DNA of 64,000 bases, taken from Candidatus Latescibacterota bacterium (GTDB lineage Bacteria > Latescibacterota > UBA2968 > SICM01). The position numbers and the translations under genes were made by a program. The stretch's first letter is position 1. The number at the start of each line of letters is the position of its first letter. The notes below the pieces were generated by a model that did no database searches, was not told the origin of the DNA, and worked only from the letters and a program-made list of their open reading frames with translations. The stretch lies in assembly GCA_965217865.1 (NCBI GenBank), contig CBDCJO010000002.1, positions 5,696,001 to 5,760,000 on the forward strand, written 5' to 3'. Positions 3,778 to 49,091 of this stretch are shown here, piece by piece.

Positions 3778-3890
3778 CCCCTTCCCTAAAGGGAAGGGGT
3801 TAGGTCTGACCCCTGATCGAACCCTGATTGGACGTCAAAACTATTCTGAAACATATTTTCTTCGCTGGGCACGGCACGCCGTGCCCCTAC
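3778..3890. repeat. REP-like palindromes between convergent genes
   Basis: CCCCTTCCCT-AA-AGGGAAGGGG (3778-3799) and GGGCACGGCACGCCGTGCCC-CTAC (3867-3890; GTAG-type REP on the minus strand). Confidence 0.65.
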
Positions 3891-4753
3891 AATTTTAATG
3901 CTTTGAAGGGCGACCACAGGAGGTCGCATCTAAGAAAGGACCTCAGTTGGCATAAAATCGCGTTCTCAGGTTGATTCTCCAGACGGGATAGCCAGTAGGA
4001 GACATCAAAATGGCTGTTCCCGGTTAATAAGCGCCAAAATTTTATCCGGTTGACGACTTCGATCCTTCCCTCATTTCCGTACCATTTGTGCGACGTACTC
4101 AATATTTGAGGGATGGAGGGATCGTCAATATCATCCGTATTCCAGAGGCGCAGCTGCCGTACAACTGGGTTCAATCTGAGCTTGAACATGAAACGCCTGC
4201 GATCCGTCCGATTTGGCTGTGCGCAATGCCATATACCGTGATGGACTGCCAGCAAGGTGCCGGCACTGCACACGAGCGGAAGCTGCCCTATGAAGTTCTG
4301 ATACCGGGCGATGTCCGATTCGCTGACTAGTCGGAAATGGCTGCCGGGCAGGCCGCCCATTTCTCGTGGCGTGTCGTGCGAAAAATAGAAAAACTGGACA
4401 TCAAATTCCGCGACACGGGTGTCGATAATGGCATCTGCGTGCCAGACCTGGCCCGTGGGTTTTCCGGCCTTCACGGTGTGAACCGCATGATGATCGTAGA
4501 GAGGGTCCGGCCCAACCAGGCTGTGTATGATCCCCTGGACTTCGGGAAGCCTGAAGACCTTCCCAATCGCGAGTTCGGGCCAGAGATCGCAAAGGGGTTG
4601 ACCGTGATCCTCGCCTCCGACAAGTCCCTGTTCGATTTCTGCAAAGGCCGCCTTGTTCAGATCATCGGGCACCAGTTCATCAAACCGAATGAACCCGTCC
4701 GAAACGAACCGAGCCATCTGTCTGGAAGTCAGTAAGTATTCTTTGTCAATCAT
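3887..4753 (-). CDS. Phytanoyl-CoA dioxygenase family Fe(II)/2-oxoglutarate oxygenase
   Basis: F..DGF start, WHAD, LPGSH, HHGIWH and R..FK motifs. Segment before LPGSH looks ~3 codons short. Confidence 0.88.
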   Translation of the reverse strand: MIDKEYLLTSRQMARFVSDGFIRFDELVPDDLNKAAFAEIEQGLVGGEDHGQPLCDLWPELAIGKVFRLPEVQGIIHSLVGPDPLYDHHAVHTVKAGKPTGQVWHADAIIDTRVAEFDVQFFYFSHDTPREMGGLPGSHFRLVSESDIARYQNFIGQLPLVCSAGTLLAVHHGIWHCAQPNRTDRRRFMFKLRLNPVVRQLRLWNTDDIDDPSIPQILSTSHKWYGNEGRIEVVNRIKFWRLLTGNSHFDVSYWLSRLENQPENAILCQLRSFLRCDLLWSPFKALKL

Positions 4754-5027
4754 TGACCTCCTCCATTTTTTCGAGGATGTATTCGAACTTGAGATATGAT
4801 GTATTATACTCCATACCCGGGTACGCGGGAAACTGTTGAGGAAATTGAATCACCCGCCAGCCGTCCCGCATAGCCTCTAAAACCGATCTATAGGGCGGTT
4901 CGTCACTGCCTCCGGTGGTGTGCGTTTCCTTCCCCGTTCCATCATATACGGCCCAGGCCACGACCTGGCTGTTCAAATCCGGGTTATGCAGATGGAGCAC
5001 GATAATTTTTTGGCGTAAGCTGGACAT
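4746..5027 (-). CDS. Small hypothetical protein, homolog of 47767-48165 (PhyH-associated)
   Basis: 93 aa, overlaps the PhyH start by 8 bp; shares YxSxxEAMxDGWRVIxFP...ExILE with the second copy. Confidence 0.85.
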   Translation of the reverse strand: MSSLRQKIIVLHLHNPDLNSQVVAWAVYDGTGKETHTTGGSDEPPYRSVLEAMRDGWRVIQFPQQFPAYPGMEYNTSYLKFEYILEKMEEVND

Positions 5028-8294: not shown

Positions 8295-9107
8295 TCAACC
8301 TCCGCCTTTCAGGTGTTTGGTTTTCTCCCCGAGTTCCACGAGGCCCTCCACCATACCCCGGATGCGGGGTCGATCGCTGTCCAGGAGCGCGCCATCCGGA
8401 TGAAATGCCTTCGGAGACCACCGCTGCAGCGAGTTGAGGTGCGCGTCCTGAGTCGGCCGGGCTGCATATTTCAGGGCGATATACCGCCGCCTGCCCGTTT
8501 TCCCGTATACGCTGTGGTATAAACTCTGATTGAACATCAGCATGTCGCCAGGATCGGTCTCCACGGCATAACAAGGCACGTCCGCGCCGTCCATCCCGAA
8601 AAAGGTCGGCTCGTCCTCTACGTGACTGCGCTGAAACGGATCGAGATCTTCGTGCAGCGGCGACCGGTGGGACCCGGGGATCACTCGAAAGGCGCCCCTT
8701 TCCTTCCGCATCGGATCGAGATATAGCATAATCTTGATTCGGGTGTAGTCGAGTTCCTGTTTCCCCTGTCTGTCCGCATGCCAGTGGTGGGCGGTGCGGC
8801 CGGGTTGAAAGCCCCGGTTGCCTTCGGATCCCGACCAGATAAAGTCTTTCCCCAACAACTGTCCTACGGGCTCGTAGATGCGGCTGTCCTCCATAAGCGG
8901 CATCAGCAGGGGATGCTTTTCCACAAAAGGCACCGTATGCATATCCTCTTCTTCCTCGGGCGAGCGCCCCAGTTCTTTCTCCCACGTGTCTTCGGATGCA
9001 CGGGAGATCGTTTCTATCTCCTCCCGCGAGAATGGCTGCTGAAACAGCAGGAATCCGAAAGTCTTGAAACAGGATATCTGCTCTGCTGTTAACATGTGAA
9101 TCCCCAT
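8295..9107 (-). CDS. Phytanoyl-CoA dioxygenase family protein (start may be 9095)
   Basis: F.TFGFL, WHAD, VIPGSH, PGDMLMF..SLYH, RR. Confidence 0.88.
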   Translation of the reverse strand: MGIHMLTAEQISCFKTFGFLLFQQPFSREEIETISRASEDTWEKELGRSPEEEEDMHTVPFVEKHPLLMPLMEDSRIYEPVGQLLGKDFIWSGSEGNRGFQPGRTAHHWHADRQGKQELDYTRIKIMLYLDPMRKERGAFRVIPGSHRSPLHEDLDPFQRSHVEDEPTFFGMDGADVPCYAVETDPGDMLMFNQSLYHSVYGKTGRRRYIALKYAARPTQDAHLNSLQRWSPKAFHPDGALLDSDRPRIRGMVEGLVELGEKTKHLKGGG

Positions 9108-9173: not shown

Positions 9174-10904
9174 TCACCCGTCCGTGGGCTCCGAATACTC
9201 GCGCTCCATCCGGTATCCATCCAGGCTTTTGAAAGGAACCGCTTTGTAGTAGTCGTCCCCCTTCCCATTCCACTCCTGCAACTCCGCACGGTGCCCAAGG
9301 TGCTTGACAAAAGCCCACTCGCTCGTGCGGTAGTACCTGTAGTGCGTGTCGAATATCGAGAGCCGGTCGGCCCCTGCCGCGTAATAGTTCATGGAGATCA
9401 ACCTGTATTGCCTTGGGGGCATGCGGCGCGGGTAGATATCTGCGACGACCTCCGTCTTCGTGCCTCTGGTCAGGTCGGCAAACGAACGGATGACCGGCGT
9501 AGCGCCGGTCCCATCGTGCTTCCCTGTTATCTCCATGTGCAGCAGAAGATAGTCCACCAGACCCTCCCGCACCCAGGTGTGAACATCGACGGCGTGCCGT
9601 TCGCAACTCGAGAATGCGGTCTCCCCTTCCGGCTCGCCGGGGTGTGGCACGGAAACAGGAACGGGATAGCAGGTCGGTATATAGCGCCCCTGCGCTTTTC
9701 CGACCTCGTCCAGCGTCGATCTAACCTCCCTCAAGAACTGAGTCAGGAAGTCCGATCTCACCTGCGTGACACGATCGTCACAAGGTGATAAACATCGCAT
9801 ATCTTCGCCGTGTTCCCTCCGGAACCTCTCGCACACAGGTTTTTCGTAGTACACAAAGGGAAATGATCGGTTGAAGGGGATGCAGATCCCATCCACCCCG
9901 TAGTCCTCCACCCACTCCCGAATCAGACGAAGGTGAAACCTTCGTACCCCTTCGAAGGCGAACGAAAGATGACGGATGGGCTCGCCGTCGGAATAGGTGC
10001 ATCGCCACTCAGGGTGGTCAGCAATAAGGTCCCCGCTGTAATTGTGGGGTAGATGGTGGGGGGGTATGGTGGCCCCAAGTAGACGATTCTGCGCGAACAA
10101 CCGCACGCCGCAGGCCCTGGCTGCGCTGACCGCCTCGTCCAGGGGATCCATCCCTCTTTCAACGCACTCGTGCAACCTCGTCGCATAGGCATTGTGCTGG
10201 GGCACGAAATCGCCCACCTTCGATGGGTATAGCGTCTGAGACCCGCTGGCGATCCGGTGCAGGACGATATCGAAGTCGCTGTCCCGAAAGTGCTCGAACG
10301 CCTCCCGGAAGTCTTCTCGAGAAGAGAGGCCCCATTGATGGTAAAAGCCAACCTGGTAGCCGACCATAGTCCGGGTTTTTGGAGATGGTTTCTCAGCCTC
10401 AAAGGCACCTATCCCAACACGATCCATCTCCACAAGTCGAACATAGGTGAGATGCGTGTACAATTCAGCCATGTCTCCGCCTTGCGGCCTGGAGATAATC
10501 ATGTCCTGGCCCGTCAGGTCGGCGCACTTCCATAAGGTCTCAGCAACATCCCACCAGCGCAGGTCTTTCTCGGGGTAGTGCCCGTCTTTCGATGGACGAA
10601 AGTCCTCCTGGCAAAAGTGGGAGAAGGCTGGATCATCGGAGAGCCTTGCCCTAAGGGCACCGCTCCCACGGGGACCCGCAGGCCCACTGTAGAAGATTCC
10701 GAACCTGATCTCATACCAACCCTCGACATTCAGCTTTATCCTCAGGTCCGGAATCGGTACACCCGGCCGTCCGATCAGCATGACCCCTTTACCCTCCTCC
10801 ACTTCATAGTCCACCGCCATCCACGTCCCGGGACGCTCATCGCGTGAAATGGCGTCGGCCGGTTCGAACCGCGTAAGGTCGGATATCAAGATCTGACGCT
10901 CCAC
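9174..10904 (-). CDS. Hypothetical protein, glycoside-hydrolase-like TIM barrel (GHL10-like) with N-terminal beta domain
   Basis: LYPSKVG, DPL..AV.AA, HPEW, LSFA..VR, YGVDG, WV.EGLVDYL patterns; RBS GGAGG before GTG. Confidence 0.6.
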   Translation of the reverse strand: MERQILISDLTRFEPADAISRDERPGTWMAVDYEVEEGKGVMLIGRPGVPIPDLRIKLNVEGWYEIRFGIFYSGPAGPRGSGALRARLSDDPAFSHFCQEDFRPSKDGHYPEKDLRWWDVAETLWKCADLTGQDMIISRPQGGDMAELYTHLTYVRLVEMDRVGIGAFEAEKPSPKTRTMVGYQVGFYHQWGLSSREDFREAFEHFRDSDFDIVLHRIASGSQTLYPSKVGDFVPQHNAYATRLHECVERGMDPLDEAVSAARACGVRLFAQNRLLGATIPPHHLPHNYSGDLIADHPEWRCTYSDGEPIRHLSFAFEGVRRFHLRLIREWVEDYGVDGICIPFNRSFPFVYYEKPVCERFRREHGEDMRCLSPCDDRVTQVRSDFLTQFLREVRSTLDEVGKAQGRYIPTCYPVPVSVPHPGEPEGETAFSSCERHAVDVHTWVREGLVDYLLLHMEITGKHDGTGATPVIRSFADLTRGTKTEVVADIYPRRMPPRQYRLISMNYYAAGADRLSIFDTHYRYYRTSEWAFVKHLGHRAELQEWNGKGDDYYKAVPFKSLDGYRMEREYSEPTDG

Positions 10905-16171: not shown

Positions 16172-17697
16172 CAGCCCGTTGAAGAACTACCTTTCAACGC
16201 ACATAAACGGAAAAGACGCCTGGAGTGCGGGTCAGATAAATCAAGGTAAGGAGATTGAGCAGGAGACGCTGATAAGAGGTTAAAAAGGTGACCGAGGGCA
16301 GCAAACGTGATTGTAGGACGAGCAGTAGACGCTGCAAGGCCTTGGCCAGGTCCTGGAGGGCCTTCGGAGTACCTACGCCCATCACTTTGCGCATGAGCAG
16401 AGCCAGGTTGCAGCCCCCGATGTGGATCAGCAAACGCTTGAGGATATTGCCGCGGTCTCTCAAGTGCAACCTGCGCATGCCACCGGTATCATATGTGTGA
16501 GCGATGGTTCTTTCCACCCGTTCTGCACGACTTCGGCGCAAGGCCTTGCCGCGATCTCCCTTGATCCGGCGTCGATTCGCATATACCGCGGCCTGCTCAT
16601 CTCGTCGGCCGTTCCACTTGCGGCGTCCCCGATCCGGTTCTGAAATGTAACTCCGGATGCCGCCTTGCTTCAGACTGGTCAATACATCGTTGCTATGATA
16701 TCCTTTGTCCGCAACCACCTCCCGTATACGCTGTCTGTGCAAACGTTTGGCAGCTTTTTCGTCCTTCGCGACCTGCTTGAGATTGAGCGGCGCCTCGAGC
16801 AGCGTCCAGGGCAACGACTCGGTATCTCCTTCATCTGCTCCCGACAACGCCACTGCCACAATGGCATTGGTGTCCAGATCCACCGCGTGCTCCACCTTGT
16901 GCGCCATGTGCGTGCGACCGTCCTTCATCTTAGCGATCTTGGCATCCGGGTCGTGCGGGTGCTCCCAGTCCTGGTTCGATCCCTTCTTCGGTCGCTTCTT
17001 ATCGATCTTGGACAAGTCCTCGCGGGTAGGCGTTTCAATGCCCGAGGCCTTGGCCAGATTCTCAAGGAATGCCTGGTAGCCTTCACCCGTGTCACGGCGT
17101 ACAATGCTGCGCATCGCGGCGTTGGCCTCCAGTGTCGTAGCATCCACGCCCAACGTCTTCCCCTTCACCAGACCCGCTTTGCACAAGACCCTCAGGATCC
17201 ACTTGAAAACCGCTTCGTGAACTTCCAAGGGAAGCCGATGCCGGATGCGAGACAGGCTGGAATGATCCGGGGTCTGTTCGTCAAGGGCATACCCCAAAAA
17301 CCGGCGCAACGTCAGCGAGTCAGATACACGCCATTCGATCCCACGTTCCGAATCAAGTCCCTCGAAATACCCAATCAAAAGCATCCGAAAATAAACCCCG
17401 GGCGGAATGCCCTTGCGACCCATATGAGGAGCGTAATACCGCTGGCAAAGCCCCTCGACGAACTCGTCGAAGCCGTTCGCCCCCAATACCTGATTCAGCT
17501 TCTCGTAGAACGGATGACCCGGAGATTTCACCAAAGTGTTCGATGCGATGAACAGGTTTTCCTGTCTCTGTCGTCCTCGTTTTCCCATTGCCATTTGCTC
17601 GTCCTCCCTTCTCAGTTTGAACCTGATATATCATAGGACCAAACCACAAGGAAAGACAACAGTCATCTTGGCATAAACGCACTTTTTCAACAGGCTG
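16172..17697 (-). mobile_element. Insertion sequence, IS1182/IS5-like, full length (1526 bp)
   Basis: Inverted termini CAGCCCGTTGAA / TTCAACAGGCTG; flanks TTAG and CTAG; near-identical copy at 40754-42000. Confidence 0.9.
16194..17594 (-). CDS. DDE transposase (DUF772-like N-terminus, IS1182/IS5-like)
   Basis: GHPFY, SER, PDHSSLSR, VDAT, DPDA, ADKGY, VER. Confidence 0.9.
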   Translation of the reverse strand: MAMGKRGRQRQENLFIASNTLVKSPGHPFYEKLNQVLGANGFDEFVEGLCQRYYAPHMGRKGIPPGVYFRMLLIGYFEGLDSERGIEWRVSDSLTLRRFLGYALDEQTPDHSSLSRIRHRLPLEVHEAVFKWILRVLCKAGLVKGKTLGVDATTLEANAAMRSIVRRDTGEGYQAFLENLAKASGIETPTREDLSKIDKKRPKKGSNQDWEHPHDPDAKIAKMKDGRTHMAHKVEHAVDLDTNAIVAVALSGADEGDTESLPWTLLEAPLNLKQVAKDEKAAKRLHRQRIREVVADKGYHSNDVLTSLKQGGIRSYISEPDRGRRKWNGRRDEQAAVYANRRRIKGDRGKALRRSRAERVERTIAHTYDTGGMRRLHLRDRGNILKRLLIHIGGCNLALLMRKVMGVGTPKALQDLAKALQRLLLVLQSRLLPSVTFLTSYQRLLLNLLTLIYLTRTPGVFSVYVR

Positions 17698-39351: not shown

Positions 39352-42300
39352 TTAGGTATTCACTGTCAGCCGGCCGATCAGCTCAGGGTATTTGTTCAGG
39401 GCTTCTGACATCCCGTCCATATCGAACATGCCGGATGCGTCGGCGAGGCGATGGCCCCATTGCTCGACGGGCGGACAGCCGTATTGTTGCCCCAGCGTCT
39501 TCATCCGGGTGGCAAATTCTTCGACTTCGTTTACTGTGAGAACGGCGCTGAGTTCCACAACCCTCGCCTTCTCGGTTTCGAGAACCTCCATCAACTCAGG
39601 GAGATTCTTTACGGTCGAAGGATCGAAGTCAGGGTCGCCGTTCTTCTGATCCTCGGGCACTTCGGATCCAAGTGCATCCTGGATCTCAGTGATGAGGCGA
39701 CTCAGTTCCTCCTGGACGAACGAAAGATGTGAATCGATCTCGGCTTGCCCATTTCCCTCGCGAATAGCGGATTCAAGAGTCTGGGCCCGCTGCTGCAGTT
39801 CTCCCGCCCCGATCGTCCCTGCGACACCCTTCAGCGAGTGTGACGTCCGCTCAGCGGCCTCTCGCTCCCCTTCCGAAAGCTGGGCACGCACCGTCTCCAC
39901 CGTCTTCGCCTCCTCTCCCGTGGCGAACCCCTTCACCAGCTTCTCGTAGAAATCCCGCTTGCCCATCACCCTCTTGAGGCCGCCCTCAACGTCCAGCCCG
40001 TCGATGGCGGCGAGGCCGGCAATGGGGTCGGATTCGTCGAGGACAGGGGCGGGCCCTATCTGTGGGGTTGCGTCTATGGATTCCCGATCGCCGTGCGGGA
40101 CCCACCTTAAGAGAGTCTTGAACAACACCTCAGGATCGATCGGCTTGGCGATGTGATCGTTCATTCCGGCTTCAACACATTTCTCGCGATCGCCTTCCAT
40201 GGCATTTGCCGTCATGGCCAGGATGGGAAGATCGGCAAACCGTGAATCTTTTCGGATTTCGCGTGTGGCACTTACACCATCCATCACAGGCATCTGCATG
40301 TCCATCAGAACGGCATCGAAAGGTTGTTGCTGAACTTTTTGAACGCCAATTTTACCATTTTCCGCCAACTCTGTTTCCAACCCGACTTGTCCAAGCAATT
40401 CGAGGGCAACCTGCTGGTTGAGTTCGTTATCCTCAACCACCAGAATACGGGCACCCCGAATGGGTGCAAGCATCTCAGGTGAGATGGCTTGTTCTTCGTG
40501 CTTTTCAGTTTGTTTGCTTTCGCCACCCAGTACCCGTATGGCTGAATCAAACAAAAGAGAGGGGGTGACGGGTTTGTTCAGGGTGATTTCTATGCCGACC
40601 TCATTGGCGCTTTGGATTAAGTCTTCACGTCCAAAAGCAGTAACCATGATGGGGTGTGGACGATTTTTGAGGGCTTGCGAATCCATCTGCCGGATGGTTT
40701 CGATGCCGTTTATGCCAGGAGGCATGTGCCAATCGACGAAGACAATCTCATAGCAGCCTGTTGAAAAAGTGCGTTTATGCCAAGATGACTGTTGTCTTTC
40801 CTTGTGGTTTGGTCCTATGATATATCAGGTTCAAACTGAGAAGGGAGGACGAGCAAATGGCAATGGGAAAACGAGGACGACAGAGACAGGAAAACCTGTT
40901 CATCGCATCGAACACTTTGGTGAAATCTCCGGGTCATCCGTTCTACGAGAAGCTGAATCAGGTATTGGGGGCGAACGGCTTCGACGAGTTCGTCGAGGGG
41001 CTTTGCCAGCGGTATTACGCTCCTCATATGGGTCGCAAGGGCATTCCGCCCGGGGTTTATTTTCGGATGCTTTTGATTGGGTATTTCGAGGGACTTGATT
41101 CGGAACGTGGGATCGAATGGCGTGTATCTGACTCGCTGACGTTGCGCCGGTTTTTGGGGTATGCCCTTGACGAACAGACCCCGGATCATTCCAGCCTGTC
41201 TCGCATCCGGCATCGGCTTCCCTTGGAAGTTCACGAAGCGGTTTTCAAGTGGATCCTGAGGGTCTTGTGCAAAGCGGGTCTGGTGAAGGGGAAGACGTTG
41301 GGCGTGGATGCTACGACACTGGAGGCCAACGCCGCGATGCGCAGCATTGTACGCCGTGACACGGGTGAAGGCTACCAGGCATTCCTTGAGAATCTGGCCA
41401 AGGCCTCGGGCATTGAAACGCCTAAACGTTTGCACAGACAGCGTATACGGGAGGTGGTTGCGGACAAAGGATATCATAGCAACGATGTATTGACCAGTCT
41501 GAAGCAAGGCGGCATCCGGAGTTACATTTCAGAACCGGATCGGGGACGCCGCAAGTGGAACGGCCGACGAGATGAGCAGGCCGCGGTATATGCGAATCGA
41601 CGCCGGATCAAGGGAGATCGCGGCAAGGCCTTGCGCCGAAGTCGTGCAGAACGGGTGGAAAGAACCATCGCTCACACATATGATACCGGTGGCATGCGCA
41701 GGTTGCACTTGAGAGACCGCGGCAATATCCTCAAGCGTTTGCTGATCCACATCGGGGGCTGCAACCTGGCTCTGCTCATGCGCAAAGTGATGGGCGTAGG
41801 TACTCCGAAGGCCCTCCAGGACCTGGCCAAGGCCTTGCAGCGTCTACTGCTCGTCCTACAATCACGTTTGCTGCCCTCGGTTACCTTTTTAACCTCTTAT
41901 CAGCGTCTCCTGCTCAATCTCCTTACCTTGATTTATCTGACCCGCACTCCAGGCGTCTTTTCCGTTTATGTGCGTTGAAAGGTAGTTCTTCAACGGGCTG
42001 ATAGGGATCACTGAGTGCATCCGCTTCGGAAATTGCCGACAACGCTTCTTCACCCGATGGCACGTCATCAACGCGGAAGGTCATATTAGAAAGCATGTCT
42101 GCGACGATCTTGCGCGCGTAAAGATTATCGTCTACAACAAGAGTCCGTCGGTTCCGCAAATCGGGTTCTGGTAGAAACTCTCGTTGTTTAGCTTTGCCAA
42201 TCCCAAGTTGGGCGGTGAACCAAAATGTGCTTCCTTTGCCGCGTTCGCTTTCGACGCCGACATCACCTCCCATGAGATTGGCAAGGTTTTTGGAGATGGC

Positions 42301-47766: not shown

Positions 47767-48165
47767 ATGGAAAGCCTTCGAAAACAGGTCGAAAACTGTC
47801 TGGAGAAATTTCAAAAGGGATCTCTTACGGGGCAGGACTTTCAAAGAGTGCTCGATTTCATTGATGGTGGCGAACCCCGGCGCTGTAAGCAGAGTCTGCT
47901 CTACATCTATTCCAGGTCCAACTCGGTGACAGGATCGGCGCTCAGCGTCAGCATCGTCGAGTGCGGGAAAGAATACGTGAAAAAAGCCGAAGCGTGCAAC
48001 AAGGACCGTAACGGACTTGATGCCGATGGGAACTTCATCTACAAATCGGCCTACGAGGCAATGGAGGATGGCTGGCGGGTTATCAAGTTCCCGGAGATGT
48101 CGCTGGCGATGGACGAACAGAACAATTACGGCCTCGGTTACGAGTTTATACTCGAGCGTCATTAG
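47767..48165 (+). CDS. Small hypothetical protein, homolog of 4746-5027 (PhyH-associated)
   Basis: YKSAYEAMEDGWRVIKFP...YEFILER; start 47767 or 47728. Confidence 0.85.
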   Translation: MESLRKQVENCLEKFQKGSLTGQDFQRVLDFIDGGEPRRCKQSLLYIYSRSNSVTGSALSVSIVECGKEYVKKAEACNKDRNGLDADGNFIYKSAYEAMEDGWRVIKFPEMSLAMDEQNNYGLGYEFILERH

Positions 48166-48209: not shown

Positions 48210-49091
48210 GTGGAACGACGAGCGCCTTACGGTGAATGTTATGATTGCGAACCGACGCTGTCGGATGTGGAGGTGATCGAGTTCTGCAAGAACGGCTACC
48301 TCATGCTCGAAGGCGTCGTCCCCGAGGCGATCAACAGGAAGACCATCCGTTATCTCGATGAGGTGGACGACTCCGGGGAACCGACGCCCATCATGGGCCA
48401 GGAGTGGTTCGTCGAGGGCGTCCTCAAGAACCCTTTGGCGGCCGGGGCGGTTCGCTCTCTCCTGGGTATGGACTTTTCTCTGCCCGTGATCATCAGCAAC
48501 CATCGCGTCAAGATGCCCAGGGAGGCCCAGGGGTGGCACCGGGACAGTGGATCGCTCTATTCCCGCAAACTCGATCATCTCCAGGTGTTTTACTACCCGG
48601 AGAACTGCCCGCCCGAGTTTGGTCCCACCAAGGTCCTTCCGGGATCACACTTCTTGCGCATCAAATCTCCCATGATGGCCAACTTCGGCCATATTTCGGG
48701 CACGGTGTCAACCGCTGCTCCGGCCGGTTCTATTTTCTTGACCGTGTACTCCATCTGGCATCACCGAAGTACGTCCACGGCCGAATCGTCCCTGAAAGTA
48801 CCTATTCGCAACATGCTCAAATACAACTACTGGCGCACGACCAAACCGAAACGCGACTGGAAGGTCGATCCCGGTTTTGACTTTTCCACGGTCGATTTCA
48901 ATCCACCCAATCCCCCCTTTATCGAAGGCTTCCAGGGCGCGGCCGCGGCGGCCCGGATGTTCTCCTGGCTCTGCGGATTGTCCGATCAATATGTGAATAG
49001 AGGCGGTCAGTCCTGGCCGGTTGCACCTACTGTTCGGGATGGCACGGAGCAGATGGGGATACCCGATGGACTCCGGAAGGATGTGAGGTAA
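48210..49091 (+). CDS. Phytanoyl-CoA dioxygenase family protein
   Basis: F..NGY, WHRD, QVFYYP, GPT.VLPGSH, SIWH. Confidence 0.88.
   Translation: MERRAPYGECYDCEPTLSDVEVIEFCKNGYLMLEGVVPEAINRKTIRYLDEVDDSGEPTPIMGQEWFVEGVLKNPLAAGAVRSLLGMDFSLPVIISNHRVKMPREAQGWHRDSGSLYSRKLDHLQVFYYPENCPPEFGPTKVLPGSHFLRIKSPMMANFGHISGTVSTAAPAGSIFLTVYSIWHHRSTSTAESSLKVPIRNMLKYNYWRTTKPKRDWKVDPGFDFSTVDFNPPNPPFIEGFQGAAAAARMFSWLCGLSDQYVNRGGQSWPVAPTVRDGTEQMGIPDGLRKDVR

Follow-up and report, generated by a model that had tools for sequence, protein, structure and literature searches.

An unnamed family of small bacterial proteins is tied to a single clade of PhyH-type Fe(II)/2OG dioxygenases, and the two genes together probably specify a two-protein version of an established enzyme family. 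The linkage is real and far beyond chance. It came to light in a 64,000-nt stretch of DNA from a Candidatus Latescibacterota bacterium (referred to as the window; the whole genome is G000), which carries two such gene pairs. We favor, with a probability of roughly 0.55, the reading that the small protein is a non-catalytic partner subunit that would associate with the enzyme and that the enzyme would require in order to assemble or to be active. The observations on which this reading is built are the adjacency of the two genes, their frequent overlap, their mirrored trees, the intact triad and arginine of the enzyme, the lack of a third conserved gene and the existence of an enzyme lineage that carries HEAT repeats and has no small gene.

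The features of both pairs are listed in Table 1. In pair 1, the small reading frame and the PhyH frame overlap by 8 nt (4746-4753), as originally noted, and a GGAGG sequence is located 6 nt before the PhyH ATG. The overlap and the ribosome-binding-like site suggest that translation of the two genes is coupled. The small gene of pair 2 lies upstream of its enzyme gene yet does not overlap it, because 44 nt separate its end from the GTG at position 48210. The original observation that the small gene directly precedes a PhyH gene is thus borne out for both copies, overlap being confined to copy 1. The two small proteins are homologous, as had been proposed, aligning with 50% identity over 42 residues (E 4e-11). 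Neither matches any family in Pfam and NCBIfam scans, in agreement with the original view that they belong to no characterized family. The two PhyH proteins score 28.5 and 31.8 bits with PF05721 against a cut-off of 22.

Table 1. Positions of the two gene pairs in the window.
Feature	Position	Strand	Basis
Small partner gene, short form, 93 aa	4746..5027	(-)	Open reading frame; no Pfam family
PhyH-type Fe(II)/2OG dioxygenase of the partnered clade (predicted)	3887..4753	(-)	PF05721, clade tree
Purine-rich ribosome-binding-like site within the end of the small gene, ahead of the PhyH ATG	4757..4764	(-)	Sequence
Small partner gene of pair 2, 132 aa (long form)	47767..48165	(+)	Alignment to copy 1
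Second PhyH of the partnered clade (GTG start)	48210..49091	(+)	PF05721, clade tree

The enzyme gene of pair 1 required some scrutiny of its sequence. Its product lacks three residues that are present in 6/6 close relatives, and nine extra bases are found at position 4351 in the contigs of 4/4 public runs. Since all four runs have these bases, the 9-nt gap is an assembly error and the gene is not broken. The C-terminus of the protein is also longer than in close relatives (288 vs 272 aa); P0134 has the same variant, and a 1-nt strain variant at position 3954 adds 19 residues to this end.

G000 has five small genes, not the two copies noted originally, and each of them directly precedes a PhyH gene. 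Six of the 77 PhyH-like frames of the genome have a small gene within 1.5 kb, one locus having two tandem enzymes; the background for such proximity is 29/6323 long open frames (spurious frames included), or roughly 2% per gene. In the window, neither of the PhyH genes located at 8.3 and 15 kb has a small gene alongside, and both fall outside the partnered clade in the tree, which upholds the distinction originally drawn. The signature said to set the partnered enzymes apart stands in part: the E.G...PGSH element also occurs in the genes at 8.3 and 15 kb, while FY.P.D...E.G[PG] and IWH...R...K are specific to the clade. These two patterns, which were composed after the partnered sequences had been seen, match 6/77 PhyH-like frames of G000, exactly the partnered ones. 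Other items in this genome deserve mention in their own right. A 576-aa protein with a GHL10-like domain is encoded directly upstream of the unpartnered PhyH gene 8295-9107, at 9174-10904 (-). Two ORFs, 16194-17594 (-) and 40857-41978 (+), are copies of what we take to be a transposase-like gene, the second copy being without 93 internal residues relative to the first. Finally, an 82-aa fragment at C2:1587034-1587282 resembles a lineage of solo short PhyH enzymes described below (L129 type).

To what extent the two genes go together was evaluated in loci fetched for the best 80 of 537 and the best 80 of 329 confirmed candidates, to which relatives of G000 were added. In this sample, which is biased toward Poribacteria and Latescibacterota because of the way it was chosen, a clade-type PhyH gene lies within 300 nt and on the same strand for 257/272 matches. 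Counting distinct sequences, the figure is 221/234, which provides the fraction of homologues adjoining PhyH that had been proposed as a check. Whole-genome lists, which escape part of the best-80 bias, gave a similar picture: 37 of the 38 small genes in G011, G039, G029, G033 and G035 adjoin PhyH, in genomes that each contain 74-127 PhyH-like matches. Further genomes yielded 7/8 (G090), 6/7 (G097) and 3/4 (G007). Up to 11 diverged pairs can be found in one genome, in unrelated catabolic settings.

Within the 221 pairs the small gene comes first in 212, PhyH comes first in six, and three are flanked arrangements. An annotated Streptomyces plasmid is an example of the reverse order, with PhyH overlapping the small gene by 4 nt. 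Overlapping genes were counted in 161/223 pairs. Occasionally a single small gene is shared by two PhyH copies, placed either in tandem (L003) or on both sides (L059 and L085). The 13 exceptions among the 234 sequences include three at a contig edge, one with PhyH one gene beyond, one broken copy and seven that are truly solo; in the remaining case a transposase-like gene is inserted and PhyH is absent within 6 kb. One lineage of solo small genes (L101, L174, L181, L184, L190) lies next to an unknown secreted-looking protein, the gene on the other side being presumably amidase-like; the G007 member of this lineage has its cognate PhyH on a different contig. Two unusual frames were also recorded: a partnered PhyH in a 552-aa frame with no further Pfam domain (L265:2911-4566) and a 227-aa frame running from the small domain into PhyH sequence (L280:2700-3383, in G077).

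No third gene is conserved: clustering of 300 neighbors of 101 pairs gave a largest cluster of 10 members. The 90 neighbors scanned with Pfam belong to mixed families, among them enolase-superfamily, Gfo/Idh/MocA, TIM-barrel isomerase, 2-hydroxyacid dehydrogenase and glycosidase genes, and inositol catabolism genes are found near the Streptomyces pair. Because the neighbors are mixed and no third gene is conserved, no substrate was deduced from gene context; as a guess from these variable neighbors, the enzyme may act on some small organic catabolite, conceivably derived from a sugar.

The small proteins, about 90-130 residues long, are found in several bacterial phyla. A single-sequence search returned 291 clusters (identity 69-98% among the 120 listed), with Poribacteria, Latescibacterota and Armatimonadota as the named clusters among the matches listed; a profile search yielded 452 representatives at 50% clustering. 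Unnamed Atlas clusters at 0.96-0.97 to the small protein are commonest in Actinomycetota and Bacillota. A search started from a divergent short member matched nothing except itself, and Streptomyces records were the sole matches in plasmid searches. The motifs R-Q, PY..V..A..DGW.V..FP and EF.LEK occur in the short forms of about 93 aa as well as in the long forms of about 120-130 aa. The conserved polar residues are Q6 (99%), D55 (90%), R58 (90%), E82 (93%) and E86 (93%), whereas no Cys or His column exceeds 70%, and a role as an Fe-S or metal electron carrier was rejected on this ground. P45, conserved at 92%, precedes Tyr46 at a loop position of the short-form model. The most conserved serine, S20, is present in 72% of 151 diverse rows, with Ala in 18%. 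A52 and W57 are invariant and look like core residues.

In a tree of 233 PhyH rows, the enzymes that accompany the small gene fall in a single branch (SH 0.992), which contains 102 adjacent, 13 long-tailed and five solo rows; six more adjacent PhyH genes that fall outside it are second neighbors on the other side. Support for the clade was 97 in a 73-row IQ-TREE run in which 35 of the 102 adjacent rows were kept together with 20 outgroup rows. The H-x-D...H triad and the arginine are intact in virtually all of the 210 pairs analyzed (H 210/210, D 209/210, H 210/210, R 210/210). The invariant arginine is Arg190, which by analogy we take to be the 2OG-binding position; W178, K194 and W207 are conserved clade-wide.

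The trees of the two proteins mirror each other, an outcome sought in the co-phylogeny check suggested originally. For 101 pairs the patristic correlation is 0.92, with a maximum of 0.18 upon shuffling; 25 of 30 supported splits are common to both trees and two conflict. Nearest neighbors agree between the small protein and PhyH in 201/204 cases, and identity declines in parallel for the two, from 94% to 32%. Plain co-inheritance of neighboring genes would produce mirrored trees as well. Inter-protein covariation was computed from 210 pairs, which amount to an effective 85 sequences for 337 columns, and several of the top pairs share one column. Altogether, adjacency, trees and clade support sustain the original proposal of a two-gene module that is old and limited to one PhyH clade.

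The association is not absolute. Long-tailed members of the enzyme clade carry C-terminal HEAT repeats in 7/7 cases scanned, and a small gene lies beside 0/13 of the genes checked. In the 73-row tree the HEAT-tailed forms nest within the partnered enzymes (support 96 within 100), and an AU test did not reject the alternative in which the short forms make up one clade that excludes them (p 0.106); for this reason, the direction implied by "HEAT replaced the small protein" is unproven. These genes constitute a widespread, uncharacterized PhyH-HEAT fusion family (L116-L125, L135, L293-L296); many relatives have 2-8 copies in their genome, and some of the copies are arranged in tandem (L119, L123, L296). 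In 15 genomes hand-picked out of 53 without a small-gene match, no true short clade PhyH was found: six yielded no clade PhyH and nine yielded long forms only (24 matches), these nine not being independent since all belong to one family (f4). The HEAT tail was confirmed for four of the 24 matches, among them the sole short frame (344 aa), which is a frameshifted HEAT form.

All the solo short enzymes of the clade that were observed come from genomes with a small gene at another locus. One such lineage comprises L129:2031-2948, L130:1948-2919, L132:2207-2944 and L289:1554-2471; no small gene adjoins it, or the L128-type enzymes, in the fetched loci. In G007, one contig has a solo small gene and another a solo short PhyH; because the same three pairs (L279, L282 and L191) are nearest to both, this is a split pair that has kept both halves. 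The solo small gene and solo PhyH of G029 belong to non-matching subfamilies. Fusions were found as well. Four clusters of 353-aa PhyH-small fusions (P0228, P0324, P0326, P0328), two of them named from Planctomycetota with eight and three members, have a PhyH part that is outside the partnered clade in both trees. Two singletons of the same small-domain subtype join the small domain to a 3-hydroxyacyl-CoA dehydrogenase (P0325) and to a Gfo/Idh/MocA oxidoreductase (P0327). The small domain is therefore not strictly clade-specific, as it is fused to PhyH from outside the clade and to two unrelated oxidoreductases. The coupling originally proposed thus holds as pairing with one clade, and is tempered by the solo small genes, the solo short-PhyH lineage, the HEAT-fused members and the outside-clade fusions.

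The short-form AlphaFold model has four beta-strands and one helix (pLDDT 86); the long-form model, made from paralogue L003, has two additional N-terminal helices (pLDDT 91). Covariation in 537 rows agrees with the strand pairing and with an R58-E86 bridge, the strongest covarying pair of the protein. At E 0.001 neither model had a Foldseek match, and wide VIA fold searches reached no Z of 5 or more with either. Below these levels one fold recurs. KCTD1 ranked third with the short model and first with the long one in the wide search, and it occupied five of the top eight Foldseek rows (probability 0.30-0.60, E 0.18-0.29). In a second look with the long-form model, the top six rows were the C-terminal domains (CTDs) of KCTD1, KCTD12 and KCTD16 (Z 3.9-4.8). 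Overall Z ranges of 3.5-4.8 for KCTD1 and 3.0-4.2 for KCTD12 are below significance. With both models the GFRP alignment spans GFRP residues 2-82 (Z 2.5 and 2.1), and all these Z values lie within the range that the tool terms a common arrangement. GFRP (PF06399) does not figure among the Pfam hits obtained for 132 members with E as high as 1, and none exceeds the cut-off in G000. The BTB domain of the KCTD family has no match in the small proteins of 93-132 aa, the long form adding a two-helix extension only. We regard the KCTD-CTD/GFRP fold as a weak lead provided by the models, rather than as membership. Sequence searches of the PDB returned repeat-protein and 14-3-3 noise only. Two candidate assignments were rejected: acyl or peptidyl carrier protein, since the model is a beta-sheet instead of a helical bundle and S20 is as variable as stated above, and DUF4177 (PF13783), matched by 0/132 members and scoring 0.9% with hhalign against a two-sequence alignment, which is a weak test.

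Various explanations can be envisaged for the persistence of the pair. That the genes belong to an old operon and travel together with no functional link is scarcely credible to us: although co-inheritance of neighbors suffices for mirrored trees and solo copies of both genes occur, other neighbors vary freely and the link outlasts reversal of gene order, gene fusion and divergence to 20-30% enzyme identity. The adjacency, the co-phylogeny, the retention of both halves after splitting and the fusions to unrelated oxidoreductases could also be accounted for if the small protein were the second enzyme of a two-step cassette, for instance a lyase, isomerase or hydrolase acting on an unstable hydroxylated product, in which case binding would be unnecessary and the conserved residues Q6, D55, R58, E82 and E86 could be relevant. 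We consider this unlikely, however, as R58-E86 covaries as expected of a structural salt bridge, A52 and W57 are core-like, conserved His or Cys residues are lacking, and a HEAT repeat is no obvious stand-in for a catalytic step.

Three roles had been put forward originally, namely accessory subunit, substrate carrier and protein substrate of the oxygenase, and the putative subunit fits best. The other two, taken together as a small protein that is hydroxylated by the enzyme or presents a tethered substrate to it, are consistent with the strict 1:1 co-divergence and with the proline that precedes Tyr46 in the model loop. They strike us as very improbable: the model lacks a carrier fold, the most conserved serine is Ala in some rows, as many as 11 diverged pairs in one genome are hard to square with one protein modification, and the HEAT-fused members would have lost their substrate. 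A different possibility is allosteric sensing in the manner of GFRP: the small protein would form a pentameric ring, dock on the dioxygenase and turn it on or off in response to a metabolite, without being needed for basic activity. The KCTD rows and the GFRP alignment point in this direction, as do the enzymes that share one small gene and the fold and pentamer that the KCTD1 CTD shares with the metabolic sensor GFRP (PMC7618933). Still, we find a sensor distinctly unlikely, given the common-arrangement Z values, the want of any GFRP match among the 132 members, and the fact that no short forms turned up in the genomes lacking the small gene, which fits a requirement better than optional control.

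Under the partner-subunit reading, coupled translation would supply the small protein and PhyH in near 1:1 amounts. The small protein may assemble with itself, possibly as a KCTD-CTD/GFRP-like ring, and contacts to the enzyme would be made by two loops that are specific to subfamilies (about residues 30-48 and 62-81); in the long-tailed forms, the fused HEAT domain would perform the same job in cis. A more elaborate version, in which a bacterial GFRP/KCTD-CTD pentameric-propeller ring assembles and activates or gates a dedicated Fe(II)/2OG dioxygenase clade, as a prokaryotic counterpart of GFRP-GTP cyclohydrolase I replaced by HEAT repeats in one lineage, is tentative and in our estimation doubtful. 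If the fold lead holds, the GFRP/KCTD-CTD ring would gain a relative in bacteria, and a function to go with it. If the partner-subunit reading is true, the pair would add a version made of two proteins to a class of enzymes generally regarded as single-component, and if the whole clade needs its partner, enzymes expressed alone would look inactive, co-expression making their chemistry testable.

To our knowledge, solved PhyH enzymes function without a partner protein, and the class is usually described as working alone. The nearest solved enzymes by profile are leucine hydroxylase (5NCH), EctD (3EMR), SnoK (5EPA), PHYHD1 (2OPW), SptF, PrhA and KanJ, all distant matches to the partnered clade (best E 6.8e-6). 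The clade resembles single-component PhyH (PF05721) in having the PhyH domain above cut-off and in keeping the triad and C-terminal Arg in 209-210/210 pairs; it differs from the solved enzymes by its own conserved W/Q/Y/K positions, a C-terminal W-L-x-G helix and the dedicated neighbor gene. PhyH-HEAT fusions belong to the same enzyme clade but have the HEAT repeats in cis and no adjoining small gene, and occur in genomes where the small gene was not found. DUF4177 proteins are likewise small beta/alpha proteins with a helix-G-W-strand motif and form the nearest named Atlas cluster (0.81 and 0.77), but are about 30 residues shorter than the small partner.

Very large sets of uncharacterized PhyH genes have been described in Poribacteria (PMC3909097), the passages considered mentioning no small partner, and demethylase activity was shown in other PF05721 members (PMC12709175). 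PhyH does not come up in the passages of PMC13118837 considered. No description of the small gene-PhyH pair emerged from literature searches; information relevant to this point may be contained in tables S10-S11 of PMC3909097 and in table S8 of PMC13118837.

The likeness to KCTD CTDs and GFRP consists of a weak match across the whole small domain, recurrent in two independent models, and of a small size and, presumably, the lack of a catalytic role on both sides. The KCTD1 CTD and GFRP have a common fold and pentamer, GFRP being a metabolic sensor (PMC7618933), and the propeller of the KCTD CTD is described in PMC9658877; both are known as partner-binding pentamers. The differences are considerable, with Z of 2.1-4.8 and identity of 4-14%, the small protein being bacterial and without BTB and its putative partner a dioxygenase. 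The closest earlier example of a 2OG dioxygenase that depends on an activator is provided by phage thymine dioxygenases, for which PMC13229309 describes a ParB-dependent subclass requiring a cognate activator beside a stand-alone subclass. Partner-dependent 2OG dioxygenases are rare enough for this 2026 paper to report one subclass as a finding. The phage proteins are TET/JBP-type DNA enzymes activated by ParB, and differ from the pairs described here in that partner fold, family and substrate are unrelated.
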